This document shows, one piece after another, positions 9,297 through 29,434 of a stretch of DNA of 64,000 nt. Below the pieces are notes generated by a model, which worked only from the letters and a program-made list of their open reading frames with translations, searched no databases and was not told where the DNA came from. The DNA comes from Candidatus Latescibacterota bacterium (GTDB lineage: Bacteria > Latescibacterota > UBA2968 > UBA8231): assembly GCA_965208105.1 (NCBI GenBank), contig OZ242318.1, positions 1,120,001 to 1,184,000 on the forward strand, given 5' to 3'. How positions within the stretch are numbered: the first letter of the stretch is position 1; every line of letters starts with the position of its first letter. Position numbers and translations under genes: made by a program.

Positions 9297-11336
9297 TCAG
9301 CCAAGTTCCCGGGGCACGGTGACGTTCCAGCTCTTGTCGAAGTAGCGGTTCCCGTCGACGGTCACCTCCACCGTGGTCGAGAAATGGTAGGATTCCGCGT
9401 CGCTGCGCAGGACTTCTTTGGCCTCGACGACAATCTTCTTGTCCGGATGCGGCGGCTCGTACAGGTAGCCGGCCTTCAGCACGGTTTCGGCCGGGTTCTT
9501 CGGCGTCACCGTATAGGTCGACCAGGCCCGCCCGGGGACGTGACTCCCGGCCCCGTCCCTCTCCAGGGTGGCGGTCACGGTGCCGGCGACGTGGTCGTGG
9601 GTGATCTCGTGGCGGCTGGCGGGCAAGTCCTCCATGGTCGCCGGCGGATGCGGCGAGGGCTCGAATCGCGGCTCCGGCAGAGATGGAGTCGGGTCCGGGG
9701 TCAGGGGCAGCACCACCCGAGACGGGCGGTCGCGGCCGCAGTACAGGCTGTGGATTGCCGGGCACGGTGTGGGCCAGGCGTTCTGGAAATCGGCGCCGGC
9801 CACGCTCAGGCGAATGCGGTGGCCCTTCTCGAACAGGTAGGAGAGGTATTTCATCTCGATGCGCAACTCGTAGACCTCGCCAGCTTCCATGGGCTCGGGA
9901 CTCGAGTGGGAGCTGCGGTGGGTCCCCAGCAGGCCGCCGTCGGTCAGCCACTTCGAGGTGCCGTCCGGGGCGACGTCGGTCAGCTTCAGGTGGAAGTAGG
10001 CGGTAGGGGCGCTGGAAGAAACGTGCAGCACCGCCACCGGGTTTCCGCTGACCTCGAGATCCCGCTGCAGCGGCGGCGTGGTCCAGGTCAGCGACAGGGC
10101 CTCGTCGAGCCGCTGGTCCACCGGCATGGCCCAGGGTATGATGCCGCCGCCCCAGTAGATGCCGGCGGTGATGCCGACCGCCGGGTTGTAGACGTTCTCG
10201 CTTGCCATACTCTCGCAATCCGGGGCCTCGCGACCGAGCTCTCCTCCGGGGTGAAAGTAGAAGGAGGTGTCCCGGTTGCGCGCCGGCGGCCACTCCTCCT
10301 CCGCTCTCCAGAACCCGGCGTCCTCCAGGTACATATGCGCCGCCGGCTCCTTGTAGCGGCGCACGAACAGGGAGACCGCGGGCTCATCCATCACCCCGGT
10401 TTCCTCCCCCTTCAGCCAGCGGTCGTACCACCTGAGCATCTCGTGGCGAAAGTCTATCCGGGGCCCGGGGAGGGCGTCTTCCGGCCAGTAGTGGCCCCAC
10501 GGACCCAGCAGGATCTTCCTGGGGACCTCGAGATTGGAGAAGGCCCGCAAAATCGGGGTGGGATAGGGATCAGCCCAGCCGCACCAGAACATCACCGGCA
10601 CATCGACGCGGCCGTAGTCCGGCTGCAGCGAACGCTCCTCCCAGTAGGGACCATGCAGCGGATGGGTTATGTAGCCGATGCCCCAGGGAACGTTGTTCTC
10701 CAGGCGCTCCTGCCACAGCTCCTCCCACAGCGGCCCGGCGATCTCGACGTCCGGAGGAGAGAAGTTGTAGGCCGTCATCAGCGGCGAGTAGCTGTCGAAC
10801 ATGTAGGGGCGGATCGAGCCGCCGGGGTTGGTCCAGTCGAGGTAGACGTCGGTGTTCGACGACCCCATCACCAGGGTCCTGAGATGAGGCGGCCTCTGCG
10901 CCGCCACGTGCCACTGCACCACGCCGCCGAAGGACATGCCCCACATGCCCACGGCGCCGCTGCACCAGGGCTGGGCGGCGACCCATTCCACCGCCTCGTA
11001 GCCGTCCCGCCGCTCCCGCTCCGAGTAGATGTCGGTGGTCGAGCCACCCGAGTTGCCGGTGCCGCGCACGTCGAAGCAGACGACGGCGTAGCCGCGGCTG
11101 GCGAACCAGGCGGGACCGTGGCGGCGGTGATTGTAACCGCTCTCGGAAACTTCGGCCTCGATCCCGGTGAGGCGGCGATAGGGCAGGTACTCGACGATCG
11201 CCGGGAACTCCCCTGGCGCGTCGGGACGCGCGACCACGGCGGCCAGCTCGACCCCGTCGCTCATGGGCATGCGCACCTTGCGGTCGAGCTTCACCTCGTA
11301 TTCCGGCCTGGATGCCGGCTTGCTCTGTCCGTTCAT
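9297..11336 (-). CDS. CocE/NonD family serine hydrolase (peptidase S15)
   Basis: MPMSDGVELAA, DVRGTGNSGG, GMWGMSFGG nucleophile elbow, GPWGH, PepX-like C-terminus. Confidence 0.9.
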   Translation of the reverse strand: MNGQSKPASRPEYEVKLDRKVRMPMSDGVELAAVVARPDAPGEFPAIVEYLPYRRLTGIEAEVSESGYNHRRHGPAWFASRGYAVVCFDVRGTGNSGGSTTDIYSERERRDGYEAVEWVAAQPWCSGAVGMWGMSFGGVVQWHVAAQRPPHLRTLVMGSSNTDVYLDWTNPGGSIRPYMFDSYSPLMTAYNFSPPDVEIAGPLWEELWQERLENNVPWGIGYITHPLHGPYWEERSLQPDYGRVDVPVMFWCGWADPYPTPILRAFSNLEVPRKILLGPWGHYWPEDALPGPRIDFRHEMLRWYDRWLKGEETGVMDEPAVSLFVRRYKEPAAHMYLEDAGFWRAEEEWPPARNRDTSFYFHPGGELGREAPDCESMASENVYNPAVGITAGIYWGGGIIPWAMPVDQRLDEALSLTWTTPPLQRDLEVSGNPVAVLHVSSSAPTAYFHLKLTDVAPDGTSKWLTDGGLLGTHRSSHSSPEPMEAGEVYELRIEMKYLSYLFEKGHRIRLSVAGADFQNAWPTPCPAIHSLYCGRDRPSRVVLPLTPDPTPSLPEPRFEPSPHPPATMEDLPASRHEITHDHVAGTVTATLERDGAGSHVPGRAWSTYTVTPKNPAETVLKAGYLYEPPHPDKKIVVEAKEVLRSDAESYHFSTTVEVTVDGNRYFDKSWNVTVPRELG

Positions 11337-15362: not shown

Positions 15363-18300
15363 GTTTCAATCCGCTCCCCTCACCGAAGCAAGGGGAGATG
15401 GTCGACCTGCTGACGGTAGGGCTCGTAGGCGAGGTTTCAATCCGCTCCCCTCACCGAAGCAAGGAGAGATGGCTCGATCTGCGAAAGGTCCACGCCTCGA
15501 TGGGGTTTCAATCCGCTCCCCTCACCGAAGCAAGGGGAGATCCACGCCTCGGCCTCGGGACGAAAGCAACCCAGGGTTTCAATCCGCTCCCCTCACCGAA
15601 GCAAGGGGAGATCGCCTATTGGGGTATTACCACCAGGGCCTGCGGGTGTTTCAATCCGCTCCCCTCACCGAAGCAAGGGGAGATTGGTTTTCCAATGCAC
15701 CAACACCCAGGTTGATAGTGTTTCAATCCGCTCCCCTCACCGAAGCAAGGGGAGATCTGTCCAACCCCATCGATTGCGGTGCCTACATTCGAGGTTTCAA
15801 TCCGCTCCCCTCACCGAAGCAAGGGGAGATCGGGCGTCGCCCGGGGGACTACTTATATCGACATGTTTCAATCCGCTCCCCTCACCGAAGCAAGGGGAGA
15901 TATCTACCTCCGGGACGGTATGGCTTGCACCTGGTGCGGTTTCAATCCGCTCCCCTCACCGAAGCAAGGGGAGATTCAAGGCTGGGCCACGACAGTATCG
16001 GCGCCAGAATAGTTTCAATCCGCTCCCCTCACCGAAGCAAGGGGAGATCAGGGCGCACCGTCGCCACACCCGCGCCCGCGTGGTTTCAATCCGCTCCCCT
16101 CACCGAAGCAAGGGGAGATCCACCCCTCGCCTTTTGGTGGCCTGCAAATTCCAGTTTCAATCCGCTCCCCTCACCGAAGCAAGGGGAGATTTCCCGAGGT
16201 TGGCCCATTCCGATCATCTGCACATGTTTCAATCCGCTCCCCTCACCGAAGCAAGGGGAGATGCTGTTGGTCGCAGCGTAGGCCACCACGTCCATGAGTT
16301 TCAATCCGCTCCCCTCACCGAAGCAAGGGGAGATCCAGCGCATACAGCCTCCTCTCAGCGGTAGCGGTAGTTTCAATCCGCTCCCCTCACCGAAGCAAGG
16401 GGAGATCTGCTCGGCTTGTCCGCAAGCTCTGACCCTGACGCTGTTTCAATCCGCTCCCCTCACCGAAGCAAGGGGAGATCCGAATCTCCAGCAATGCTGG
16501 TATCTTACCAATTAGTTTCAATCCGCTCCCCTCACCGAAGCAAGGGGAGATCCCCCATGATCCGGAGTGCAAATCGCTTTCTGATAGTTTCAATCCGCTC
16601 CCCTCACCGAAGCAAGGGGAGATAGCGACCCGCGTGTTTTTGGGTGATTTGTTAGTTGTTTCAATCCGCTCCCCTCACCGAAGCAAGGGGAGATGACGGC
16701 AAAGCGGGGGAATCAGTGAGACGGACAGAGTTTCAATCCGCTCCCCTCACCGAAGCAAGGGGAGATCTCGGTGCCCGGCCAGCCGGCCCCGACCACCTAC
16801 GTTTCAATCCGCTCCCCTCACCGAAGCAAGGGGAGATTCGGGCGGGTCCTACAGCCCGAACACGGGCGACGTGTTTCAATCCGCTCCCCTCACCGAAGCA
16901 AGGGGAGATACGCCCGGCGCAGGCGAGACGACCTACCTGATTACGTTTCAATCCGCTCCCCTCACCGAAGCAAGGGGAGATCGGCCCTACCTGGCGCTAT
17001 GACACCTCGCGCCGCTCGTTTCAATCCGCTCCCCTCACCGAAGCAAGGGGAGATGGCGGCGTCAGGGCCAGGGCCACCGCGGAGATCGAGTTTCAATCCG
17101 CTCCCCTCACCGAAGCAAGGGGAGATGATGGCGTCGATTATTTTTGCCTGATCTCTGGACAGTTTCAATCCGCTCCCCTCACCGAAGCAAGGGGAGATAG
17201 CTGCTGATTCCCTGGATGATGCCCTGGTGCACGGTTTCAATCCGCTCCCCTCACCGAAGCAAGGGGAGATTGGCGCGGCTGATGGATCAGGGCAGGCCGT
17301 AGAGGGTTTCAATCCGCTCCCCTCACCGAAGCAAGGGGAGATATGGAGTGCCAGTTCCGATATCCTTGTCCGCGGAGTTTCAATCCGCTCCCCTCACCGA
17401 AGCAAGGGGAGATACAGCATCGAAATCTGAGCACGGAAAATTGGGTTGTTTCAATCCGCTCCCCTCACCGAAGCAAGGGGAGATCGTTCCTCCAATTCCA
17501 TACGGCGCTCATTCACCGCGTTTCAATCCGCTCCCCTCACCGAAGCAAGGGGAGATCCGACGGCGCGGTGCGCGCGTGGAGCTTCGACCCGGTTTCAATC
17601 CGCTCCCCTCACCGAAGCAAGGGGAGATCGGTTAAGGAGGATCAACACCTGTGCCGCACGGTATTGTTTCAATCCGCTCCCCTCACCGAAGCAAGGGGAG
17701 ATCGCTCAAGCTGCTTTCCTTCCAAAGGTTCCGGCCCGTTTCAATCCGCTCCCCTCACCGAAGCAAGGGGAGATCGGTCCCGCCGGCCCATGTCCGCCAA
17801 CGATGAACGGGTTTCAATCCGCTCCCCTCACCGAAGCAAGGGGAGATCCGACGGCGCGGTGCGCGCGTGGAGCTTCGACCCGGTTTCAATCCGCTCCCCT
17901 CACCGAAGCAAGGGGAGATCGGGGCATCGTCTCGTTCAACAACACGTTCTACCTGTTTCAATCCGCTCCCCTCACCGAAGCAAGGGGAGATCTTCGTAGG
18001 GATCAGCAACGTCATCGGCATCCGGTGTTTCAATCCGCTCCCCTCACCGAAGCAAGGGGAGATAGTGATCTCTTGCAGCCTGTCGGTGGGATGATCGGTT
18101 TCAATCCGCTCCCCTCACCGAAGCAAGGGGAGATTTACCTCATCGCTAAAATCCGTCCCATTGATACTGTTTCAATCCGCTCCCCTCACCGAAGCAAGGG
18201 GAGATTCGAGCGCTACGGCCATTCATCTGCAACCAGCGAGTGTTTCAATCCGCTCCCCTCACCGAAGCAAGGGGAGATTTGTCGTGGGGTTAAGACTGCC

Positions 18301-20155
18301 GGTAATACGGTTGTTTCAATCCGCTCCCCTCACCGAAGCAAGGGGAGATCAACAAAGTGGGGCACATCCTCGATACGCAGCCCTGTTTCAATCCGCTCCC
18401 CTCACCGAAGCAAGGGGAGATTTCTGATGGCGTCGATTATTTTGCCTGATTCTCTGGACAGTTTCAATCCGCTCCCCTCACCGAAGCAAGGGGAGATTCT
18501 TGCCGATTATCCTGGACGAGAGCGAAGCAAAGGTTTCAATCCGCTCCCCTCACCGAAGCAAGGGGAGATATCTCTCTTTGACTGTGGCTTTTTTGCCTGT
18601 CCTGTTTCAATCCGCTCCCCTCACCGAAGCAAGGGGAGATTTATCTACGATCTGGCGGGCGGGTCGGATGCAGCGGTTTCAATCCGCTCCCCTCACCGAA
18701 GCAAGGGGAGATTGGTTTGTTGTGCCTTGCATGGTTCCAATTTATAGAGTTTCAATCCGCTCCCCTCACCGAAGCAAGGGGAGATCAGGCAACCTAAATC
18801 TGACATTCACCGTATACGAGTGTTTCAATCCGCTCCCCTCACCGAAGCAAGGGGAGATCCGCCCGGATTGCTCCAGGCGGTCCTTAATCAGCTGTTTCAA
18901 TCCGCTCCCCTCACCGAAGCAAGGGGAGATGACCTCCCTACGGACCATTTCAAACGCTTGGGTAAGTTTCAATCCGCTCCCCTCACCGAAGCAAGGGGAG
19001 ATCTTTTTGGGCTGATACAGCAACGTGCACGGCAACGTTTCAATCCGCTCCCCTCACCGAAGCAAGGGGAGATGGGTATATCCCAAAGAGCTGAGAGCGT
19101 GGGTTTACGTTTCAATCCGCTCCCCTCACCGAAGCAAGGGGAGATCAGAGCAACAAAGTCACCGAATAGCAATATACCCGGTTTCAATCCGCTCCCCTCA
19201 CCGAAGCAAGGGGAGATCTCCCGGCGGATCATTACAACAGCTCGGATCGCCACGTTTCAATCCGCTCCCCTCACCGAAGCAAGGGGAGATAATGGGAATG
19301 CCCCGCCAAAGTTCCATTTCATACGTTTCAATCCGCTCCCCTCACCGAAGCAAGGGGAGATTTCTCCGCCTCGGCCCTGTCGATTACTCCATACCTGTTT
19401 CAATCCGCTCCCCTCACCGAAGCAAGGGGAGATCCAGCTTCTGAGCGGCACCCATACGACCATAAGAGTTTCAATCCGCTCCCCTCACCGAAGCAAGGGG
19501 AGATGTCGGTGATTTCACTCGTTTGACTCCAGTCTTTGGTTTCAATCCGCTCCCCTCACCGAAGCAAGGGGAGATCAGCGGCGGCGGCGGTTGACAAGTG
19601 GGTCGATCGTGTGTTTCAATCCGCTCCCCTCACCGAAGCAAGGGGAGATGCAATATGGACTGCCGAATCCTGGGAAACCTCGGCGTTTCAATCCGCTCCC
19701 CTCACCGAAGCAAGGGGAGATGTATGTGCTGGATAATGATTTCGCGGTGTTTGAAGTTTCAATCCGCTCCCCTCACCGAAGCAAGGGGAGATCGACTAGC
19801 TTGGTAGTCTGTTCAGCCAGCAATCCGTTTCAATCCGCTCCCCTCACCGAAGCAAGGGGAGATCTCTGAGTTCTCTTGCGTCTGTAAGAGCATCTTCGTT
19901 TCAATCCGCTCCCCTCACCGAAGCAAGGGGAGATTCCCTTGAGGAGACCTCCCCCCCACCAATGCCACGTTTCAATCCGCTCCCCTCACCGAAGCAAGGG
20001 GAGATCTATTCAAATCGCTCCTTCCTATGCAGATTACTCTAGTTTCAATCCGCTCCCCTCACCGAAGCAAGGGGAGATAGCGCATTGGGTTAATGCGCGG
20101 TGATCAAGGCTGAGATCTGTTTCAATCCGCTCCCCTCACCGAAGCAAGGGGAGAT
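15363..20155 (-). CRISPR. Type I-C CRISPR array, 67 repeats / 66 spacers (manual count)
   Basis: 37-bp repeat GTTTCAATCCGCTCCCCTCACCGAAGCAAGGGGAGAT (+). The minus strand ends ATTGAAAC and folds into a 10-bp stem with a cUUCGg loop. Spacers about 34-40 bp; a variant repeat lies at the distal end (15434). Confidence 0.98.
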
Positions 20156-20335: not shown

Positions 20336-20626
20336 CTATAAGACCAGTGGCTCATTCAGATCCACGGGTTCACCGAGCCCGTGATGCTCCGTCTTGTCTC
20401 TGGCATCTTCGTCCAGGTGATAAAACCTGAGCGAATCCTGTTTTGGATCCATTTCCTTCAGCAGACGACTCCTGAGCGCTGCCCATTGGGTCTTTCCCAG
20501 GCGACATTCAAAGAGCGATTTCTGAACCCGGATACCGTAATCCTTACAGGCTCTTGCTACCTTGCGCAGGCGCCGTTGGCCAGCTCGATCTATCGTTGAA
20601 ACATCGTAAGCGATCAGGATGAACAT
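20336..20626 (-). CDS. cas2: CRISPR-associated Cas2
   Basis: LIAYDVST..RRLRKVARACKDYGIRVQKSLFEC..DSLRFY. Confidence 0.97.
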   Translation of the reverse strand: MFILIAYDVSTIDRAGQRRLRKVARACKDYGIRVQKSLFECRLGKTQWAALRSRLLKEMDPKQDSLRFYHLDEDARDKTEHHGLGEPVDLNEPLVL

Positions 20627-21687
20627 TATTTCGGAATGAAGGGAATGTAGTCAGGGACATCGCCGCGCAGCTTGCGGGCCAATAACTTGGCCTGGATGCT
20701 GAACACTTGACCTAAACAAATATTCTCCTTGAACAGGGCGTGCTTTATTTCCGTTTGCTTGCGCCGTTGCCAAGCCTGGATGACCTCTTTCCTGCCCTTT
20801 TCGGTAAATTCTACAGCGCCACCCTCTCGTTCGCGAAAGTGCCCGGACTCGATCTGCCTGCGATTGATCAAGGTCAATGCCAACCGCTCTGCCAAACAGG
20901 GCCGGAACTCTTCCATCAGATCCAAGGCGCAAGCCGGCCTGCCCGGGCGCGTTGCATGAAGCCAGCCGACATAGGGATCCAGTCCGGCGGTTGTCAAAGC
21001 CGCCAGGCAATCGTGGCGGATCAAGGCATAAATGAAGGAGAGCAGGCAGTTTATCTGGTCCCGGGGCGGACGACGGGTACGGGTCACAAATCTGAAATCT
21101 TCCCGTTGCTGTTTGAGCATGTATTGGAACACCGAGAAATACACTTTGGCTCCCATTCCCTCCAGGCCCCTGATCGGGTCCAGGGCCTCCCGAACCCCGC
21201 AATCCGGGGCAACGGGCTCAGCATTGCCGAGTTGGTGGATCAGTTGCACCAATTCATCTGCCGCACCCGCCAATGCCGTGCGGTCTGCATCATCCTCGGC
21301 TTCCCGGCCGGCTCGTAAAAGATTGGATCGCGCATTTTGCAGCTTCCCGGCCACAAACTGCCGGGCAATGCCAGCCGCATCCTGTGAGCTGTCCGCCGCC
21401 GCGTACTGAGCCCGGCGCAGCAAGTAGCGGGTGTCTCCGCTTCCCAGGACCTGCGCCAGCAAGTAGCCGTTTTCCGTGTGGTAATGCACCGCTACCTGAT
21501 GCTCCCAGCAAAAGGCCATGGCCTGAGGCGTAACCACGACCCGGCCAAACGCGCAAATGCTTTCCAAATGATGAATTGGCACGGTCAGGCGGGTTTGTTT
21601 TTCGATCACGACCCGAAGCGTCAAGTGATCTCTGTGTACTACAGTACCCGGTGTCGTCAAGTAGAGAATGTTTTGGACGACGGCCAT
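20626..21687 (-). CDS. cas1: CRISPR-associated Cas1 (type I-C)
   Basis: NILYLTT, RGLEG..YF, RRPPRDQINCLLSFIY, LDPYVG..H, LALDLMEEFR-like motif. Confidence 0.97.
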   Translation of the reverse strand: MAVVQNILYLTTPGTVVHRDHLTLRVVIEKQTRLTVPIHHLESICAFGRVVVTPQAMAFCWEHQVAVHYHTENGYLLAQVLGSGDTRYLLRRAQYAAADSSQDAAGIARQFVAGKLQNARSNLLRAGREAEDDADRTALAGAADELVQLIHQLGNAEPVAPDCGVREALDPIRGLEGMGAKVYFSVFQYMLKQQREDFRFVTRTRRPPRDQINCLLSFIYALIRHDCLAALTTAGLDPYVGWLHATRPGRPACALDLMEEFRPCLAERLALTLINRRQIESGHFREREGGAVEFTEKGRKEVIQAWQRRKQTEIKHALFKENICLGQVFSIQAKLLARKLRGDVPDYIPFIPK

Positions 21688-21714
21688 GTTTCAACCCGTT
21701 TCTTTACTGAAGTA
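21688..21714 (-). repeat. Degenerate CRISPR-repeat-like element abutting the cas1 start codon
   Basis: GTTTCAACCCGTTTCTTTACTGAAGTA matches the element at 22426 at 19/27 positions ungapped; all mismatches are transitions. Confidence 0.55.
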
Positions 21715-22425
21715 GTGAGCACCCTGGTCGCTGGTATCGAACACTGCCCGATAGGCCCGCACCAGCGTAGGCGGGACACTGGTGACTTCGGGTAGGCAAT
21801 GGTCAAAAAGTGAGCACTCGGAGCATTGGGGTTTGTGGACGGCTTGAGGTACCACTTCCTCTTCGATCAGCCGGTGCATGGCTTCGATGGCCTGTTCGGT
21901 GAGGCGGCGCAAATCCTCGGTAAATTCCACCTCTCGGCGGCGCTTGCTCTTGGCGTGGAAGATCGCCCCCTTGGGAATGTCCAGTCCGAACATTTCTTCG
22001 AGGCACAACGCTTGGGCGCAAAGCTGAGCGTCGTCGTTGTCGAATTTGCGGCGTTTGCCCTTTTTGTATTCAACTGGATAGACGCTTTCAACATTATCCG
22101 GCAAATATCGGGATATTTTTCGCTTAGAAGGGCGTTTTAGTTTCACCTCAACAATATCGCATTTTCCAGAAAGGCCCAACCTTTGGGACCATACCGGCAA
22201 CGCCCGAAGCACTTCTGAATCTACCGCCTTCTCGTACCCTGGAATATCGGCTTGCTCGTGAAATTGACTACCGATCAGTGTGTGCTCATTGTCGGTAAAA
22301 GTGCCCTCGACATGAATCAAGGCCGCCCGCCGTGGGCAATAGAGGTACTGGTTGATAGCGGAAAGCGCGATGATCCGCTCCCCGCTATCGAATGGGTGGA
22401 TCGGTTGGGTAGTCAATTCACTCAT
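21691..22425 (-). CDS. cas4: CRISPR-associated Cas4
   Basis: YLYCPRR, GKCDIVE, PVEYKKG, QLCAQALCLEEM, CSECSLFDHC Fe-S motif. Confidence 0.95.
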   Translation of the reverse strand: MSELTTQPIHPFDSGERIIALSAINQYLYCPRRAALIHVEGTFTDNEHTLIGSQFHEQADIPGYEKAVDSEVLRALPVWSQRLGLSGKCDIVEVKLKRPSKRKISRYLPDNVESVYPVEYKKGKRRKFDNDDAQLCAQALCLEEMFGLDIPKGAIFHAKSKRRREVEFTEDLRRLTEQAIEAMHRLIEEEVVPQAVHKPQCSECSLFDHCLPEVTSVPPTLVRAYRAVFDTSDQGAHYFSKETG

Positions 22426-22463
22426 GTTTCAATCCGCTCCTCCGCCGAAGTGAGAGGAGGCAT
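22426..22463 (-). repeat. Solitary CRISPR-repeat-like element between cas7 and cas4
   Basis: GTTTCAATCCGCTCCTCCGCCGAAGTGAGAGGAGGCAT; first 15 nt identical to the array repeat; hairpin retained with a compensatory pair. Confidence 0.88.
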
Positions 22464-22474
22464 ATACGTGAAAC

Positions 22475-23428
22475 TCACTCATGACGCCTGTGTAGGCGAA
22501 CGCCTCCGGGCAGCTCAGCACTGTCCCACCCGCAGCTAATCTCATAATCGGCAAAGGATTGGGGAAATTCTACGCTGTCCTTCAGTTTCACCTCGATTCC
22601 CTCAAAGAGCTTGTGAGCATGGGCGCAGCCGAGACGGGCTTCGCGTTTGTTTTGTTCGGCGTTATTCTCATGCTGAGTACCGACATGCTCAAAGTCGTAA
22701 ATCCCTCGCACCACCATTTCCCCGCGGGCAGCAGAGCGGTCGTGCTCAAACATGTGGTTGAGCGCATCGAAAAGGACTTCAAGGTCAGTGCTGGTGAAAC
22801 CTGTGCGCTCGGCGAAAGCAGGCGAGACATAAACCTTGGCAGCGTAGAGAGCGTATGGGACGATGTGCTTATTGCCCATGGTACGTTCTTTGTCGGCATC
22901 TTCCTCTTTGGTGACAGCTCCGCGAGTGATGGAGATTTCCAATGGCGTGATAGAATGGTAAGACTGGCCGAAGGTGAATTGCACCGGGCCCCGCACTTGT
23001 CCCCAAGCGGAACCTTTCATGATGTCGTCGCCGGTAGAGAGTACACCGCCGAATGTTCGCACGTCAAAGAATTCACGACACAGCCATTTCATGGCCGCTT
23101 CTTGCTTTTGGTCTTTGGAAGCTCCCGAGGCTAAACTCTCGCCGCTTTTTTCTATGCCGTTATTGATCTCGTTGTTGAGTACGGCACCCTGCCTGATGAG
23201 CAGGTTATAGCCATTACCATCGTCGCCAGTGCGCTCGGGCGGGAATGTTTCCACAAAGTTGCGCACCTTGCGCTTGAGACACACGTCGGAAACGATACCC
23301 CGATTGGTGTTGTGGTCTTGACGCGGCATGTTGCCAGCATCAGGATCGCCATTGGGATTTCCATTGGTGACCTCGAAGAGCAGCAAAACATCGTGCCGAT
23401 TGGTGAGAATATCGTTGTTCTGATTCAT
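22475..23428 (-). CDS. cas7: Type I-C Cas7 (Csd2)
   Basis: FEVTNGNPNGDPDAGNMPR, SDVCLKRKVRN, FFDVRTFG, GQVRGPVQ, FEHDRSAARGEM. Confidence 0.97.
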   Translation of the reverse strand: MNQNNDILTNRHDVLLLFEVTNGNPNGDPDAGNMPRQDHNTNRGIVSDVCLKRKVRNFVETFPPERTGDDGNGYNLLIRQGAVLNNEINNGIEKSGESLASGASKDQKQEAAMKWLCREFFDVRTFGGVLSTGDDIMKGSAWGQVRGPVQFTFGQSYHSITPLEISITRGAVTKEEDADKERTMGNKHIVPYALYAAKVYVSPAFAERTGFTSTDLEVLFDALNHMFEHDRSAARGEMVVRGIYDFEHVGTQHENNAEQNKREARLGCAHAHKLFEGIEVKLKDSVEFPQSFADYEISCGWDSAELPGGVRLHRRHE

Positions 23429-23455: not shown

Positions 23456-23866
23456 TTAGTTGCTTTCCTTTTCTTCTTTTGCTGCTTCGCGGGCGACGCG
23501 GTCGGCGGCCTTTTGCTGGTAAAAGCCGAGGGCAAAGCGCCCCTGTGCATGCAAATCCAGTGTACGGGGAAATGGGTAGATTTTAGTTGACACTTCTTGA
23601 ATAGCCTTGTCCAAAGAGCGGTCATGTCCTTTGTACTTATCGGACTTACGGATATTGTTGAGATGGTGGCGGTTGAGCTTGAGGAGGACGGGGAACACTG
23701 AGGCTGGCGAGGCCATGGCAGTGCCAAAATAACGCTCGGCAACACCGGCTCCTTCGAGTTGATAATCATGTGCCTTGGCTTGGGCCTCGGCGAGTACAGC
23801 GAGTAGCCGTCCGCATTGATAGGCGGCATCTTCCGCCTTTGCATCCTGTTGTTCAGTAATTTCCAT
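23456..23866 (-). CDS. cas11: Putative Cas11c from an internal in-frame start in cas8c (136 aa)
   Basis: AAGGA SD 7 nt before an in-frame ATG (MEITEQ...) just ahead of the C-terminal helical bundle, as known for type I-C. Confidence 0.65.
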   Translation of the reverse strand: MEITEQQDAKAEDAAYQCGRLLAVLAEAQAKAHDYQLEGAGVAERYFGTAMASPASVFPVLLKLNRHHLNNIRKSDKYKGHDRSLDKAIQEVSTKIYPFPRTLDLHAQGRFALGFYQQKAADRVAREAAKEEKESN

Positions 23867-25300
23867 GATCTTTTCCTTTCGATTCCGATTGAGAATGAGC
23901 TTCGCCAAGGCGAACCGTGAATGGTTCAACAATGCCGTGCTTCCATCGCGTGCCATATCAACCCGCAGGCGGTTCAACATGGGATGCAAAAAAGCCAGTG
24001 AGGGCGCGGTTCCTTCCAGCGCGGCACGAAACAACTGGGCGGTCACTTCCGTCTGCAAATCTTTTGCGTCGCGTACTGTAGTGCAAGCCAGTCGGAACAA
24101 AGCTAATGGCGGCATTTTTTCTTTGCCAGTAGGCAGACGCACCGGTTCCAGATCGAGATCGCGGAACCAGTGTTGCAGGTTTTCTGTGGCGGTTTCCAGT
24201 GTAGTCTGCATCCAGTGGCGCACGACAATCCGGCCACTATTGCCGGCGAGAGTGACGGCATGGAATTGCTCTTGCCGTAGTGCCTCGCGTTCCCGTCCAG
24301 CCCACGGAGACTTCAAAAAATTCGCCACTGCTATGGGATCGGCTTGGTTGAGCAAAGCCCCAAAAGTGCTGGTGGCGTCCGTTTCATTACGGGTCCAAAA
24401 ACAGCAAGATGCCTGCCCTAAGCGGACAGAATGATCTTCGCGGTCGAGCATTGCGTTGAGCGCGGTGCAATAGGCAGTAGCTGCTCGGGTGGAGGTAGAA
24501 GCGTTGAGACTTTGCTCAAAACCGTAGGAGGCGAAGGCATCCTTATCAAACGAGACAATCGCCGCGCCAAAGGCTTGAGTGTTGGGCACTCTTTGGATTT
24601 TAGGATTGTGAGTCAGCGCAATAGGCTGATCGCTCTTCCCAGTGACCAAGCAGAGTCCGTGAGGCGCATCTGCTTCGTGGTCTTGATTTTCTTGCTCGAA
24701 TTGACTACGCCAAAAGGGTCGGATGTGAATCTCATCCTCCAGCAGCAATTGTTCTTCTACGCGGAATGAGAAGTTGTCCGGCCCTAGCTTGACCTCTCCA
24801 CCGTCGGCTTTAGTGATCCACCAAGCAGGTCTTTCTTTGGGCTTGGGGTCGGAACTGATTCCCCAACGCAAAAAGGATGGCATCTGCCCCGGCTCAGGCT
24901 TGAAAGCCAACAGGGTCTTGAGCACCGGGCTGAGTGTTTTCTCGTGGGCCTGTTTAATCTGTGTCCAAAAGTCATCGTATTTACGGAGGTTGTTCTCATT
25001 CCGGTCCTTCCGCTTCTTTTCAGACATAGGTCGTTCCGGGTTCGTGTCCAATCCGAACACGGCTGTAATACTGTCCGCCATGAACTCGGCCACCCCACCA
25101 GCCACCTTGGGTCGAGTTGTCTGTGGGCAATCGAACTCCTTACCTCGGTTCCTTTCCCCCTCGGTCTCCACCGGCCCCTGCCCCACGAGATTGCCCGTCG
25201 TGTCCAAAGTAATGATCCATCGCACCGCCTTGGGTTTGAATCCTAGGTTATTAAGGAGTTCTCGAGAGATTGCAAAATCGTTCAAATATTGCAGCAGCAT
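23456..25300 (-). CDS. cas8c: Type I-C Cas8c (Csd1)
   Basis: CLVTG, IVSFDKDAFASYG, AYQCGRLLAVL, QGRFALGFYQQ. Confidence 0.95.
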   Translation of the reverse strand: MLLQYLNDFAISRELLNNLGFKPKAVRWIITLDTTGNLVGQGPVETEGERNRGKEFDCPQTTRPKVAGGVAEFMADSITAVFGLDTNPERPMSEKKRKDRNENNLRKYDDFWTQIKQAHEKTLSPVLKTLLAFKPEPGQMPSFLRWGISSDPKPKERPAWWITKADGGEVKLGPDNFSFRVEEQLLLEDEIHIRPFWRSQFEQENQDHEADAPHGLCLVTGKSDQPIALTHNPKIQRVPNTQAFGAAIVSFDKDAFASYGFEQSLNASTSTRAATAYCTALNAMLDREDHSVRLGQASCCFWTRNETDATSTFGALLNQADPIAVANFLKSPWAGREREALRQEQFHAVTLAGNSGRIVVRHWMQTTLETATENLQHWFRDLDLEPVRLPTGKEKMPPLALFRLACTTVRDAKDLQTEVTAQLFRAALEGTAPSLAFLHPMLNRLRVDMARDGSTALLNHSRFALAKLILNRNRKEKIMEITEQQDAKAEDAAYQCGRLLAVLAEAQAKAHDYQLEGAGVAERYFGTAMASPASVFPVLLKLNRHHLNNIRKSDKYKGHDRSLDKAIQEVSTKIYPFPRTLDLHAQGRFALGFYQQKAADRVAREAAKEEKESN

Positions 25301-25302
25301 TA

Positions 25303-26115
25303 TCAGATTCCCTTGGGTTCGAGAATTTCAACTTCATCGGGATGGCAAGATAAGGTGGAATCCTCAATCTTGGCGCGGAAAAAACAGGCCCTAGGTTTAG
25401 CCAATTCACCGACGAAACGCGGAGTACTTTTCTTGGGTTTGTCCCCCAATTCATCGGGACGTTTCCAGCGAAAACCCTGAGCGCGGGCCGTGGGCGAAAA
25501 AACGTCGTAGAGCATCAAACCCAAATCCTCCACGGGCTGTCGCCAACTGTCACCCAATTCAGTGACTCGCTCTTCCAGAGCGGCTTGGGGGTCATCAACC
25601 CACTCGAAATCCGCCGCGAATTCACGCATACCCAAGGCAGGCCGATGGAAGCACTTGCCCTGCTGAGCGCGACGCTTGAATTCAGCGAAATACTTCACCA
25701 GTGTATCGTTTGGGTGATTCGCCAACGGCGTGGTACGCAGTTCGGCGCTGATGATGTATTCTACCTCTTGCAGGGCTAACATGTTGCGCTGAGTGCCGTC
25801 AGGTGCGCCTCCGCCAGCTTCAATGGGCGATACCTTTTCCGGCTGCCTCATCCATTGGCTGACGTTGCGTAGGCTGATGACCGATTGCACTTCATTGCGC
25901 CGAATCGAGGCCCACCGGCCTCGCTGAACCACCCGGATGGCAGCAACGCAATAGCAAACTTGGGGTTCCCAAAACACGGCTTCCAAAATGCCCCGTGCGG
26001 CAGAGGGCGTCATCACCGGATAGCTGACGCGCTCCACTTTCATTTCGGGACGGGTGAAACAGGCCCAATCGCCCCATACTCTCAGGTGTACATGAAAATT
26101 TTTATTATTTTTCAT
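25303..26115 (-). CDS. cas5: Type I-C Cas5d
   Basis: VWGDWACFTRPEMKVERVSYPVMTPSAARGILEAVFW, GKCFHRPALGMREF. Confidence 0.97.
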   Translation of the reverse strand: MKNNKNFHVHLRVWGDWACFTRPEMKVERVSYPVMTPSAARGILEAVFWEPQVCYCVAAIRVVQRGRWASIRRNEVQSVISLRNVSQWMRQPEKVSPIEAGGGAPDGTQRNMLALQEVEYIISAELRTTPLANHPNDTLVKYFAEFKRRAQQGKCFHRPALGMREFAADFEWVDDPQAALEERVTELGDSWRQPVEDLGLMLYDVFSPTARAQGFRWKRPDELGDKPKKSTPRFVGELAKPRACFFRAKIEDSTLSCHPDEVEILEPKGI

Positions 26116-28331
26116 AATAAGAAATCCTCAGTCGGACGTTGGTCGATAACCACGCCGAGATGTTCGTGATAAGCAGCTTCATCCAGTACGCTCAGTTCCA
26201 TACCGGGTAACAGCGGGCGAAGCAGTCCCATGTTGTCGACCTTCTGAAAATCGCGCAAATGCAGATTCACTATAAAGCGTTGAAGATCGCGCAAATCCTT
26301 GCGAGTGAAGCGCGGACCATCTATTTGGGGGCGCTCCCGGATAGCGGCTACCATTCCCAAGGCTTCCTCCCTTGGCGCGATTACAGCTTGGGTGTCATCG
26401 GAAATTACCTTCGCCTTGCTGGCTACTTCACGAAAACGCAATGCTTCTCGATCCTCCTGAATGGAGCTCTCTCGACGGCGTTGATAATCCGTGGGCACGT
26501 ATTGAAAAAGCTCGCCAAAGTAACGACGGAACAAATCCGGCTCGCCAGATAAGTCATCCGCGGACAACCGATATAGCAACCGCGCCGCAATGTCCGTAGC
26601 TACGCGATATACGCCGCCGGGCAGCTTGGGGTCTGTTGGCCGGAATACCACTACACGCCCCTTGTCGGGTAAGAGTCCTTCCCGATTACAGCGGCCCGCT
26701 GCTTGCACGATCGAATCCAGTGGCCCCAAGGCACGGTAAACCAACGGAAAATCAATATCCACTCCGGCCTCTATTACCTGAGTCGCCACCAACCAACAAG
26801 GTTTTTCGTTTTTCAAACGCCATTGCGCTTCCGCCAGAACTTTGAACCGATGCTCAGCGCACATGGCCGAGGAAAGATGCAGTACACCTTCTAATTTTTG
26901 CCCGCGCAGCAGTTCCCACCATTCAGCCGCCTGTTTGCGCGTATTCACCACACCCAAGGCTTGAGGCTCATTCGTCCATTCCTTAGCCAATTCAGGCCAA
27001 TCGCTCTCCGTGGACCGCACCTCGTAAATTACCCGGCCTAGCTTCTGAAACAACTCGCTAGGCTGTGCCCCGATCTCTTTCACTTCATCCACATCGAAAC
27101 CATTCGCCAACGATGTGCTGCGACTAAAGGCTGGTTGGGTAGCGGTGGAGAAAACGAAACTCGTGCAGTAGTGTTTTTGGAGATCGCGTAGCACATGCAG
27201 GAGCGGATTGAGCAGATGCGAAGGCAGCGTCTGCACTTCATCCAGTAATACCACGGAACTCGCAATGTTGTGCAGTTTTCGGCACTTGGAGGTGCGATTG
27301 GCAAAGAGGGACTCAATGAATTGTACTGAGGTGGTGACGATGACCGGAGCGTCCCAGTTCTCCGCTGCCAATTCCTCTGGGGACCGGCCTTGCTCCCCAT
27401 CGTCATCCTTCGCAACTACTGCCGAATGATGCTCAATCACGATGCCTTCGTTTTGGGGATCAAGCACTTTGCGATATTCGGCGGCATTCTGTTCAATGAT
27501 TGACAGATAAGGTATCACCACGATCACCCGCTGCATCCCATGTCGCCGTGCATGTTCCAAGGCAAAGGCCATGCTCGATAGCGTTTTGCCACCTCCCGTC
27601 GGCACGGTTAGAGAAAAGAAGCCTACTGGTTCCGCCGCCTTTGCCAAGCAGTCCTCAAACACCCTGTTGCGTAACTGATTGAGTTTGCCGGAAGCATCAA
27701 ACTTGCCTCGGTGTGCTTGCAGTCGCTTCAGTAGCAACGGGACATCCAGCTTCACTGGATAGCGCTCCCGTCCTGAGCTGAATTGTTCCGTATCAAGAAA
27801 ATCCGCATCCACCAAGCAGGAAAACAACATCCGCACGTAGAATTCGGCGACGGCTGGATCCCCCGAGCGCTCGACAAATTCGGGTTCGGCCAGCTTGTTT
27901 GGAATTTTTTCCAGTTCCGTCTCAAACCGCTTTACCAGAGGATCGAGACGGTTCATGGCATCGTACTTTTCTCCGCAGACCAATCCTTGCAAATCACTTA
28001 CGTTATGTAGACCCGCATGATGTCCGGCAATGGCAAACGCCGGTGCCAGCCATCCTCTGATGAATGCCAGTGCAGCACCATACACCGCATGATGGGTTTC
28101 AGCCGATCCCGGACGCTCGTCTGCCAGATATTCTTGGAAAGCCTGGCTATATTTTCCCAGATCGTGGAGCAGACCGGCCAATTTGGCACCATCGGCAAAA
28201 CCGAACGGTCCGGCGAATCCCCGAGCCCTGTCCGCTACGTTTCGCAAATGCTCGGATAACGGTTGCCAACGCGATTTATTCGGATCGGGTTCTCCAGTAG
28301 CCGTTTCGGCTGTATGGGCATAGTAGTTCAT
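26112..28331 (-). CDS. cas3: Cas3 HD nuclease-helicase
   Basis: LLHDLGK, LVDADFLDT, VPTGGGKT, DEVQ, QAAGRCNREG. Confidence 0.97.
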   Translation of the reverse strand: MNYYAHTAETATGEPDPNKSRWQPLSEHLRNVADRARGFAGPFGFADGAKLAGLLHDLGKYSQAFQEYLADERPGSAETHHAVYGAALAFIRGWLAPAFAIAGHHAGLHNVSDLQGLVCGEKYDAMNRLDPLVKRFETELEKIPNKLAEPEFVERSGDPAVAEFYVRMLFSCLVDADFLDTEQFSSGRERYPVKLDVPLLLKRLQAHRGKFDASGKLNQLRNRVFEDCLAKAAEPVGFFSLTVPTGGGKTLSSMAFALEHARRHGMQRVIVVIPYLSIIEQNAAEYRKVLDPQNEGIVIEHHSAVVAKDDDGEQGRSPEELAAENWDAPVIVTTSVQFIESLFANRTSKCRKLHNIASSVVLLDEVQTLPSHLLNPLLHVLRDLQKHYCTSFVFSTATQPAFSRSTSLANGFDVDEVKEIGAQPSELFQKLGRVIYEVRSTESDWPELAKEWTNEPQALGVVNTRKQAAEWWELLRGQKLEGVLHLSSAMCAEHRFKVLAEAQWRLKNEKPCWLVATQVIEAGVDIDFPLVYRALGPLDSIVQAAGRCNREGLLPDKGRVVVFRPTDPKLPGGVYRVATDIAARLLYRLSADDLSGEPDLFRRYFGELFQYVPTDYQRRRESSIQEDREALRFREVASKAKVISDDTQAVIAPREEALGMVAAIRERPQIDGPRFTRKDLRDLQRFIVNLHLRDFQKVDNMGLLRPLLPGMELSVLDEAAYHEHLGVVIDQRPTEDFLL

Positions 28332-28374: not shown

Positions 28375-28746
28375 TTATCCGCATGCCTTCAACAGAACGG
28401 CCGGCAACCGCTTCAACTCCGCATTGCGCGGATCGACCTCAAACCCGCCGGACTCCAGGGCGGTAACCCGAAGCAGCGGTTCTACCCCTTCCTCCCCGTA
28501 CACGATGGTCCCGCCGACGACTTCACCCTCGAACTCAATCTCGGCGGTGGTTATGTCCAAAGAGACGGGCTTTCCGTCCTCAAGCACGTACTTGCGGCAT
28601 CCCTTCGGCTTGAGTCCGATCGCTTCGAGGTGCGACCTCGGCACGAACGAGTCGAACACACCGGTATTGACGAGAAATTTGCCGGTCCAGCTTCGCTGCA
28701 GGTCCGCAGGATTGCGGATGGTTACGTCAACATAGATTGCGCCCAT
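28375..28746 (-). CDS. Clan AA (retropepsin-like) aspartic protease homolog, catalytic DTG read as NTG
   Basis: YVDVTIRNP..FLVNTGVF..EPLLRVTALES..VDP; 123 aa. Confidence 0.75.
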   Translation of the reverse strand: MGAIYVDVTIRNPADLQRSWTGKFLVNTGVFDSFVPRSHLEAIGLKPKGCRKYVLEDGKPVSLDITTAEIEFEGEVVGGTIVYGEEGVEPLLRVTALESGGFEVDPRNAELKRLPAVLLKACG

Positions 28747-28790
28747 TGTGGTTCGCATTCCGAGTTGATTCTGCTGCCGCCGGGTTTTGT

Positions 28791-28819
28791 ATGATAGTGA
28801 AATTTTGTTCAGCGTGCAA
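28791..28819 (-). promoter_or_regulatory. Putative sigma70 promoter upstream of protease-cas3
   Basis: Minus strand TTGCAC-N17-TATCAT; paralogous TTGCAT-N17-TAAATT at about 29528-29556. Confidence 0.5.
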
Positions 28820-28861
28820 GAGGGACCCGGTTTCTCGACTGATTTCCCTTTCAACCACTCA

Positions 28862-28980
28862 TCAGGCAGTGGTCGTACCACTTCAGCATCTCGTGGCGGA
28901 AGCCGGTTCGGGAACCGGCTAGCGCGTCCTCGGGCCAGTAGTAGCCCCGCGGACCCGGCAGGATCTTTGGGGAGACTTCG
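28862..28980 (-). pseudogene. Degenerate internal fragment of a CocE/NonD hydrolase gene
   Basis: Translates KILPGPRGYYWPEDALAGSRTGFRHEMLKWYD vs KILLGPWGHYWPEDALPGPRIDFRHEMLRWYD at 10411-10530. Confidence 0.8.
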
Positions 28981-29062: not shown

Positions 29063-29434
29063 CTATCCGCATTTCTTCAGCAGGACGGCCGGGTGCCGCT
29101 TCAGCTCTGCGTTCCACGGGTCGAGCTCGAATCCCCCGGACTCCAGCGCGGTGAGGCCGAGCAGGGGTTCGGCCCCTTCTTCGCCGTAGACGATGGTGCC
29201 GCCGACGACTTCCCCCTCGAACTCGATTTCCCCCACGGTTATATCCGCGGAAGCGGGCATGCCGTCTGCGAGCAGGTACCGGCGCCGGCCCCTGGGTTCG
29301 AGCCCGATGGCCTCGAGGTGCTCGCGCGGCACCAGGGCGTCGAAGGCGCCGCTGCCGACGAGGAATTTGCTGGTCAAACTCTGCCGCGGGTCCGCCGGAT
29401 TGCGGATGGTCACGTCAACGTAGGTTGCAACCAT
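29063..29434 (-). CDS. Clan AA aspartic protease homolog (tandem paralog), catalytic motif read as GSG
   Basis: YVDVTIRNP..FLVGSGAF..EPLLGLTALES; 123 aa, highly similar to 28375-28746. Confidence 0.75.
   Translation of the reverse strand: MVATYVDVTIRNPADPRQSLTSKFLVGSGAFDALVPREHLEAIGLEPRGRRRYLLADGMPASADITVGEIEFEGEVVGGTIVYGEEGAEPLLGLTALESGGFELDPWNAELKRHPAVLLKKCG

Follow-up and report, generated by a model that had tools for sequence, protein, structure and literature searches.

In bacterial operons, intercistronic hairpins that mask a ribosome-binding site give translational coupling, and in synthetic operons Cas6f/Csy4 hairpins have been engineered between cistrons as insulation. [quoted passage not shown] Here we describe a degenerate copy of a CRISPR repeat that separates cas7 from cas4 in a type I-C operon of a Candidatus Latescibacterota bacterium. 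It lies on the minus strand, within 22426-22474, of a stretch of 64,000 nucleotides (nt), hereafter the window (assembly GCA_965208105.1, contig OZ242318.1, positions 1,120,001 to 1,184,000). The copy is an insertion into an ancestral overlap of the two genes, and similar copies precede cas1 and cas2 in related loci.

The window element resembles the coupling hairpins mentioned above in that a Shine-Dalgarno (SD) sequence lies in a stem and a ribosome at the upstream stop codon could reach the helix, stop and start having overlapped ancestrally; it differs in that its hairpin would be a co-opted CRISPR repeat, which may be read by the system's own RNA endonuclease. As in synthetic insulation, a repeat hairpin stands between cistrons that a Cas endonuclease could separate, although here the arrangement is natural and the cleavage only predicted. 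With CreA/CreR and the crlRNAs (PMC10120712, Shmakov et al. 2023; bioRxiv 10.1101/2023.03.10.532045), as presented in the passages of these reports considered here, it shares a derivation from the repeat, a place outside the array within a CRISPR-cas locus, and a proposed tuning of cas genes. Those regulators occupy long intergenic regions, as mini-arrays or units, and give trans guides that send Cascade or Cas12 to promoters, whereas the window element is one sense unit in a 49-nt intercistronic gap, directly against a start codon, with a predicted cis effect on translation. Racrs (RNA anti-CRISPRs of phages), in the considered passages of PMC10651486, are likewise solitary repeat units able to bind Cas proteins without guiding; they are virus-encoded trans decoys, whereas the window unit is a cis unit at the adaptation genes of a host operon. 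With the precursor CRISPR RNA (pre-crRNA) repeat as a substrate of Cas5c (PMC8524198, in part) it has in common a stem-loop, an exact 11-nt handle and a predicted cut at the stem's 3' base. Unlike that repeat, it is solitary, lies within an mRNA and carries eight edits in the stem-loop, and its handle is not invariant in relatives.

We found no account in the literature of type I-C repeat copies before cas4, cas1 or cas2, nor of a start codon supplied by the handle TTG, although survey supplements may list I-C cases; with that proviso, the impression of a first-pass annotation of this DNA that the layout is undescribed for type I-C holds. The considered passages of PMC10120712 name type I-C once and do not mention cas4, and those of bioRxiv 10.1101/2023.03.10.532045 name type I-C once and cas4 twice, only as an adaptation gene.

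From the cas7 stop to the cas4 ATG, the 49-nt insert reads GTTTCACGTATATG-CCTCCTCTCAC-TTCG-GCGGAGGAG-CGGATTGAAAC; the minus strand from 22463 to 22423 is ATGC-CTCCTCTCAC-TTCG-GCGGAGGAG-CGGATTGAAAC-ATG, as first described. Its parts are the following:

22426-22474, minus strand: cas7-cas4 intergenic insert of 49 nt with a degenerate repeat copy, aligned to the local repeat (31/37 positions)
22475-22482, minus strand: junction duplicate ATGAGTGA, 5' copy at the end of cas7, from sequence comparison
22469-22474, minus strand: GUUUCA directly 3' of the cas7 stop, forming an outer helix with UGAAAC (22426-22431) in the predicted fold
22450-22459, minus strand: 5' arm of the hairpin, CTCCTCTCAC, from sequence and predicted fold
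22446-22449, minus strand: UUCG tetraloop, the same as in the array repeat, from sequence and predicted fold
22437-22445, minus strand: 3' arm of the hairpin, GCGGAGGAG, from sequence and predicted fold
22437-22443, minus strand: SD-like GGAGGAG within the 3' arm, paired in the predicted fold
between 22437 and 22436, minus strand: predicted Cas5c cut, from the cut-site rule in the considered part of PMC8524198
22426-22436, minus strand: exact 11-nt 5' handle of the CRISPR RNA (crRNA), CGGATTGAAAC, adjoining the cas4 ATG; the sole copy in the window outside the array
22418-22432, minus strand: mini open reading frame (mini-ORF) TTG AAA CAT GAG TGA (MKHE, then stop) from the handle TTG, read from the sequence
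22418-22425, minus strand: junction duplicate ATGAGTGA, 3' copy at the start of cas4, from sequence comparison

The array repeat is ATCTCCCCTTGCTTCGGTGAGGGGAGCGGATTGAAAC, and the 3' arm of its family is GGGGAG. [quoted passage not shown] Of the 68 copies of the 11-nt handle in the window, 67 belong to the array and one to the element; shuffled sequences give an expectation of 0.03. Across the 4.85-Mb genome, the 12-mer GCGGATTGAAAC (the handle extended by the G before it) has 69 matches, 67 in the array, one in the element and one unrelated; this last match (C1:342579) is without a hairpin or GGAG arm and was discarded, about 0.6 chance matches being expected. The element is a single copy, 2.3 kb from the array, with no repeat-spacer periodicity. 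These copy counts, the alignment and the fold place it beyond chance: it is derived from the repeat.

In the predicted fold, a 7-bp lower stem carries the UUCG loop, and the stem's 3' base adjoins the handle. The fold of the whole 52 nt, which includes the outer helix, has an energy of -15.7 kcal/mol (z -2.0), while the inner 38 nt alone are unexceptional (z -0.57). The outer segment GUUUCA is GUUUUA in the related locus L038, which gives a G.U pair, and is missing in L001. The first-pass annotation had pointed to GGAGGAG in the 3' arm as the strongest SD-like sequence; it lies 11 nt from the ATG and is in fact the only SD-like sequence before cas4. The change from C-G to U-A that it had called compensatory is real with respect to the repeat, although the path leads through a U.G intermediate, a U standing opposite G in L001, L038 and run X10. 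No promoter-like or terminator-like site was found in 22200-22800, and no U-run 3' of the hairpin, and a terminator or an internal promoter was rejected. Among the RNA runs, all of them contigs, none reaches across the junction; X19 covers 22560-22700 only.

The junction was compared in 13 loci in which a close cas7 (at least 82% identical) is directly followed by cas4. The insert is present in six of them (the window, L001, L038, L010, L011 and L024), a degenerate remnant in one (L008), and in the other six (L003, L004, L005, L006, L014 and L019) cas7 and cas4 overlap on ATGAGTGA or ATGA. In the insert-free loci a single ATGAGTGA is common to both genes, while in the insert-bearing loci the overlap sequence flanks the insert on both sides. 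The duplicate comprises ATGAGTGA and two of the four following bases in the window, and 13 of 13 bases in L010, five of them non-coding in the upstream copy. Because the overlap sequence stands on both sides, the overlap is ancestral and the insert derived: a local repeat has been inserted into the 8-nt cas7/cas4 overlap. With its stop, the mini-ORF runs into the start region of cas4, an overlap that the cas7 stop makes in the insert-free loci.

The inserts of L001 and L038 are homologous to that of the window. In trees of the effector genes and of cas4 plus cas1, insert and overlap states are intermixed, and L038, with the insert, is sister to L003, with the overlap (99% support). The element is easily gained or lost, or moves by recombination at the cas7-cas4 junction. 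In L009 and L027, what is left of the element and of the 5' end of cas4 is followed by an inserted small gene. In L008 a decayed repeat remnant (9936-9985) is followed by a partial second cas7 3' end (…GGGAC…GCGTCATGA) before cas4, which suggests that the adaptation module of this locus arrived by recombination, carrying the tail of another cas7. Eight loci (L012, L016, L018, L021, L023, L028, L029 and L032) have the same cas4-cas1-cas2 module and repeat family with a different effector module, in which Cas7 is 25-30% and Cas3 28-31% identical; adaptation and effector modules have thus been shuffled, with the 5' end of cas4 as a breakpoint. A metagenome scan with Cas7 gave six loci, of which one (L038) was useful, and a phylum-wide Cas7 search (168 genomes) gave no close locus beyond the known set, as judged by matching identities.

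Copies of the repeat also precede the other adaptation genes of relatives. When all sequence upstream of the arrays was scanned with each locus's own whole repeat, 22 sense matches were obtained against five antisense ones, and 18 of the 22 lie before cas4, cas1 or cas2; in the sense scans of related loci there were no repeat copies before cas3, cas8 or cas7. A census of the motif GGATTGAAAC, with at most one mismatch and outside arrays, covered 438,446 nt per strand in 36 loci and gave:

sense strand, within 25 nt of the cas4 start: 5 matches
sense strand, within 25 nt of the cas1 start: 14 matches
sense strand, within 25 nt of the cas2 start: 5 matches
sense strand, near cas5: 1 handle-like match
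sense strand, elsewhere: 16 matches, of which 8 are one conserved cas8 coding site
antisense strand: 19 matches

With up to two mismatches, the handle stands before cas1 in 14 of 36 loci and before cas2 in 11 of 34. In L004 and L028 cas2 has no in-frame ATG, GTG or TTG other than the handle TTG, and the same holds for cas1 of L002.

The cas1-side elements occur in L013 (10656-10693), L024 (10715-10751), L010 (10611-10646), L012, L016, L017, L007, L002, L018 and L015; in these, the handle adjoins the cas1 ATG or its TTG acts as the start codon, and a GGGAAC variant common to them suggests one old insertion. On the cas2 side (L003:11814-11850, L038:2481-2517, L026, L021, L029, L032, L004 and L028), Cas2 appears to begin at the handle TTG (TTG AAA CTG ATC...), with a GGAG, as AGGAGAG, 6 nt upstream of it, and the hairpin is mostly decayed. 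The window itself retains a trace on the cas1 side:

21688-21697, minus strand: handle remnant GGGTTGAAAC, adjoining the cas1 ATG and containing the cas4 stop TGA, in a position homologous to the full elements of L013, L024, L010 and others

In 21691-21726 the cas4 of the window reads through this remnant, and it encodes 244 amino acids, against 216-237 in relatives. On these comparisons, the window element belongs to a clade-specific group of elements that derive from the repeat and stand before cas4, cas1 and cas2. In a sample of 401 Acidobacteriota genomes, 23 further type I-C loci did not have the motif at these junctions, nor was it found in this genome's second I-C locus, whose repeat (GTCGCCCCCCGTGCGGGGGCGTGGATTGAAAC) has no GGAG arm, and the trait seems to be confined to the family of repeats with a GGGGAG arm. 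Two I-C-like loci of Acidobacteriota, L088 (1420-1490 and 2680-2740) and L089 (2550-2616), have short tandem repeats before cas1 and cas2, made up of a GAACCCT heptamer and of ACTGACT-like and CACGAAT-like units.

Starting from what the sequence comparisons show (repeat origin, insertion into the overlap, specificity of position and strand, and handle-TTG starts in relatives), we tentatively favour the view that the repeat has been co-opted as a masked ribosome-binding and coupling element of cas4. One copy of the local repeat, once inserted into the overlap, would have become a cis-acting translation-initiation region of cas4 on the polycistronic mRNA. The purine-rich 3' arm, GGAGGAG, would serve as the SD site and the handle as the spacer between it and the ATG, the handle TTG also opening a mini-ORF of four codons whose end falls on the start of cas4. 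Masking of the initiation region would come from the inherited hairpin together with the new outer helix that starts at the cas7 stop. As these helices cover the SD and start region, cas4 would be translated at a low level, chiefly once ribosomes finishing cas7 open the structure. Use of the SD, masking and coupling are inferred from this anatomy: in the predicted fold the SD is paired in a stem adjoining the start codon, and the outer helix begins at the first base after the cas7 TGA, near the terminating ribosome. Cutting of the element by Cas5c may take place in addition; the favoured reading does not require it.

The genome is equipped for such initiation. The 3' end of its 16S rRNA, ...CACCUCCUUUCU / ...CACCTCCTTTCT, is a canonical anti-Shine-Dalgarno sequence, and among 3978 long ORFs, 34% have an SD-like motif upstream, where a control window gives 16%. 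The spacing of GGAG to ATG peaks at 5-9 nt, and at 11 nt the count is 70 over a background of about 25. The canonical anti-SD, the enrichment of SD-like motifs and the representation of the 11-nt spacing above background support reading the element as the cas4 initiation region.

Other features of the elements bear on what selection has kept. Identity to the repeat consensus, profiled over 30 elements, is highest in the 3' half; the elements were found through the handle motif, so that the profile carries an ascertainment bias towards it:

handle ATTGAAA: identity 0.90-1.00
CGG after the cut site: identity 0.83
lower 3' arm: identity 0.6-0.8
upper stem: identity 0.3-0.4

The GGGGAG of the family arm has become AGGAGAG in the cas2-side elements and GGAGGAG in the window element, both better SD cores. 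With the 4-fold degenerate sites of the flanking genes as a neutral yardstick, the element is conserved above these sites in three of four pairs of loci:

window and L038: element 42/49, 4-fold sites 0.61, P 1.4e-4
window and L001: element 42/49, 4-fold sites 0.72, P 0.017
L010 and L011: element 43/46, 4-fold sites 0.75, P 0.0014
L001 and L038: element 37/49, 4-fold sites 0.72, P 0.36

Hairpin stability was compared with that of randomly mutated repeats matched by edit distance, and none of 27 elements is more stable than these at P<0.05 (window P 0.25). On the question raised in the first-pass annotation, whether the element is absent or decays at random in relatives, the insert is present in six of the 13 loci, its hairpin is no more stable than random decay predicts, and three of the four pairs exceed the neutral yardstick. 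The cas2-side hairpins are weak (-1.7 to -7.5 kcal/mol), and the SD and the start codon are retained there. Beyond the part derived from the repeat, new pairing has arisen. A predicted 14-bp stem of L010 and L011, with energies of -23 and -25 kcal/mol (z -5.2), extends into the handle, the two differing by one U-A versus C-G pair; in the window and L038 it is the outer helix directly 3' of the cas7 stop. The helix starts 0 nt after the stop in the latter two and 4 nt after the TAA in L010 and L011.

Several observations weigh against the translational interpretation. The 11-nt spacing from the SD to the ATG is suboptimal, the pair L001 and L038 has no excess conservation, and the hairpins of L001 and L024 are poor, so that masking does not hold for every locus. 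Repeated losses of the element make it dispensable. The handle ATTGAAA is better kept than a mere spacer needs, even if the ascertainment bias applies to this value, and its conservation hints at a sequence-specific reader such as Cas5c.

The operon that would supply this reader is a complete type I-C system followed by a leader and the array. It has no cas6, and the type I-C gene set is present, with TIGR01876, TIGR01863, TIGR02589 and TIGR03640 all above cut-off. In order of transcription, and identified with NCBIfam models where not stated otherwise, it comprises:

26112-28331, minus strand: cas3
25303-26115, minus strand: cas5c, encoding the presumed pre-crRNA endonuclease (TIGR01876; matches solved Cas5c structures)
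23456-25300, minus strand: cas8c
22475-23428, minus strand: cas7, or Csd2 (TIGR02589, E 5.5e-84)
21691-22425, minus strand: cas4 (TIGR00372, E 2.6e-37)
20626-21687, minus strand: cas1 of type I-C (TIGR03640, E 1.3e-124)
20336-20626, minus strand: cas2
15363-20155, minus strand: CRISPR array of 67 repeats, the source family of the cas7-cas4 element, from a repeat scan

Upstream of cas3 stand two tandem small genes (28375-28881 and 29063-29434, minus strand) with retropepsin-like products (…VDTGAFDS…), whose matches to PF13975/PF13650 are weak and below cut-off. The same gene also lies between cas7 and cas4 in L002 (9586-9950), L007, L009 and L027, while in L023 and L025 its place is before cas4; it may be an undescribed CRISPR-linked gene. 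The same genome has a second, more classical type I-C locus (G000:C1, about 2,093,000-2,101,000), with a Cas7 some 43-53% identical and an array of two repeats only, which have the GGATTGAAAC handle end in common with the window array. The Cas4 of L033 (10270-10560) contains a long low-complexity insertion rich in Ser, Gly and Ala.

The first-pass annotation had proposed that Cas5d, here called Cas5c, operates the junction as a switch. In the fuller form considered here, Cas5c, alone or with Cas7, would recognise the repeat-like site in front of cas4, and in relatives those in front of cas1 and cas2, and cut between the 3' arm and the handle, severing the SD from the start codon or capping the 5' handle. 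Adaptation output would then fall when free Cas5c or Cascade subunits are abundant, and this would be a selected function; we consider it rather unlikely. The biochemistry on which it builds is given in the considered parts of PMC8524198: Cas5c enzymes cut at the stem's 3' base and leave 11 nt, as the first-pass annotation had it, and recognition by BhaCas5c is centred on the trinucleotide after the cut, the stem base and the 3' overhang, with neither the loop nor the 5' overhang at its centre. With stem base, cut site and handle intact in the window, cleavage of its junction by Cas5c is plausible. The identities of the CGG and of the handle in the profile (with its bias) are in line with such a reader, the elements precede adaptation genes only, save for the one handle-like motif near cas5, and those of L010 bear the loop variant of L010's own array. 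A review, in the part considered, also reports an unexplained negative autoregulation of a type I-C operon in Myxococcus by Cas8c, Cas7 and Cas5.

Other evidence speaks against the switch as a selected function. All 30 arrays end in GGATTGAAAC, whereas the junction handle is altered in five cases:

L038: CGAATTGAAAC
L010: CGGATTAAAAC
L011: CGGATTAAACG
run X5: ...GAAGC
run X10: loss of one A, bringing the TTG into the cas4 frame

The stems of L010 and L011 pair the CGGAU that Cas5c should read, and the cas2-side elements have kept SD and start codon with a weak or decayed hairpin. By these three observations, what selection maintains is the initiation signals and not a substrate for Cas5c. The patchy occurrence of the element and the hairpin stabilities, indistinguishable from random decay, also count against the switch. 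The enzyme itself departs from its relatives of known structure. It matches solved Cas5c structures strongly (E 3e-40), yet has AVFWEP and KY (residues ~48 and 142-143) where 3KG4, 3VZI, 8DEJ and 7KHA have AIHWKP and KH. The Phe and Lys-Tyr are kept across the Cas5c of the clade, although L005 and L031 have KH, and in L014 and L031 the first site is Tyr. These positions would be those of the Tyr/Lys/His triad named in the considered part of PMC8524198; with F and KY in place of H and KH, the activity of the clade enzymes is presumed only. Of the earlier switch proposal there remain the repeat origin, the 3' arm as the sole SD-like sequence and the placement of elements before adaptation genes, set against patchiness, handle drift and hairpin decay. 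A broader proposition for this clade is in our estimate unlikely: through the repeat copies in front of cas4, cas1 and cas2, the proteins that process and assemble crRNA in the system would act on the adaptation mRNAs as well, and cleavage by Cas5c, or the loading of Cascade subunits on the 5' handle, would part the ribosome-binding site from the start codon.

A further reading is that of a neutral, decaying remnant. A repeat copy from the nearby array would have entered by illegitimate recombination or slippage and been tolerated through the duplicated junction, with no role beyond leaving cas4 expression unblocked. The patchiness, with insert and overlap states mixed in both effector and adaptation trees, fits this, as do hairpin energies expected from random edits, a series of stages of decay (L024, L008, L009, L027 and the cas1-side remnant of the window) and the greater number of elements at the junctions nearest the array (14 before cas1 and 11 before cas2) than at cas4 (six). 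Such a remnant should not be held strictly in the sense orientation and against the start codon at three junctions, nor provide the only in-frame start in some loci, and neither the conservation above 4-fold sites in three of four pairs nor the changes that improve the SD is expected of it; we regard a neutral remnant as unlikely.

A second half of a mini-array was sought downstream: GGGGAGCGGAT, at +43 of cas4, matches the repeat but encodes a conserved GERI and is present in insert-free loci too, and was rejected. The only spacer-like match of the element is the duplicated junction, which is preceded by GTC, whereas the protospacer-adjacent motif of type I-C is TTC. A guide of the CreR/crlRNA type, made of the handle and the first cas4 bases, with a seed matching the ATGAGTGA(G)TT duplicate in which cas7 ends, so that Cascade blocks transcription into the adaptation genes, is very improbable: the duplicated 8-13 nt do sit 57 nt upstream, and degenerate mini-CRISPR regulators are known, with type I-C mentioned in the considered part of bioRxiv 10.1101/2023.03.10.532045, but the unit stands alone, neither a second repeat nor a hairpin following it downstream, its gap is only 49 nt long with no promoter-like site in 22200-22800, its seed is mismatched in L011 and L024, and the first 8 nt are fixed by coding anyway.

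For annotation, TTG starts in repeat-like sequence are easily overlooked, and solitary repeats may be miscalled as array fragments. For the biology of this family, the elements would be CRISPR repeats recycled as intercistronic translation signals, in which the crRNA handle even supplies the start codon of cas1 or cas2. They would also bring the expression of the adaptation genes within reach of the crRNA-processing enzyme, which leads to the hypothesis of a feedback between effector and adaptation. If the adaptation mRNAs were indeed substrates of the effector proteins, spacer acquisition would be throttled post-transcriptionally by free effector subunits and released when pre-crRNA or inhibitors soak these up.

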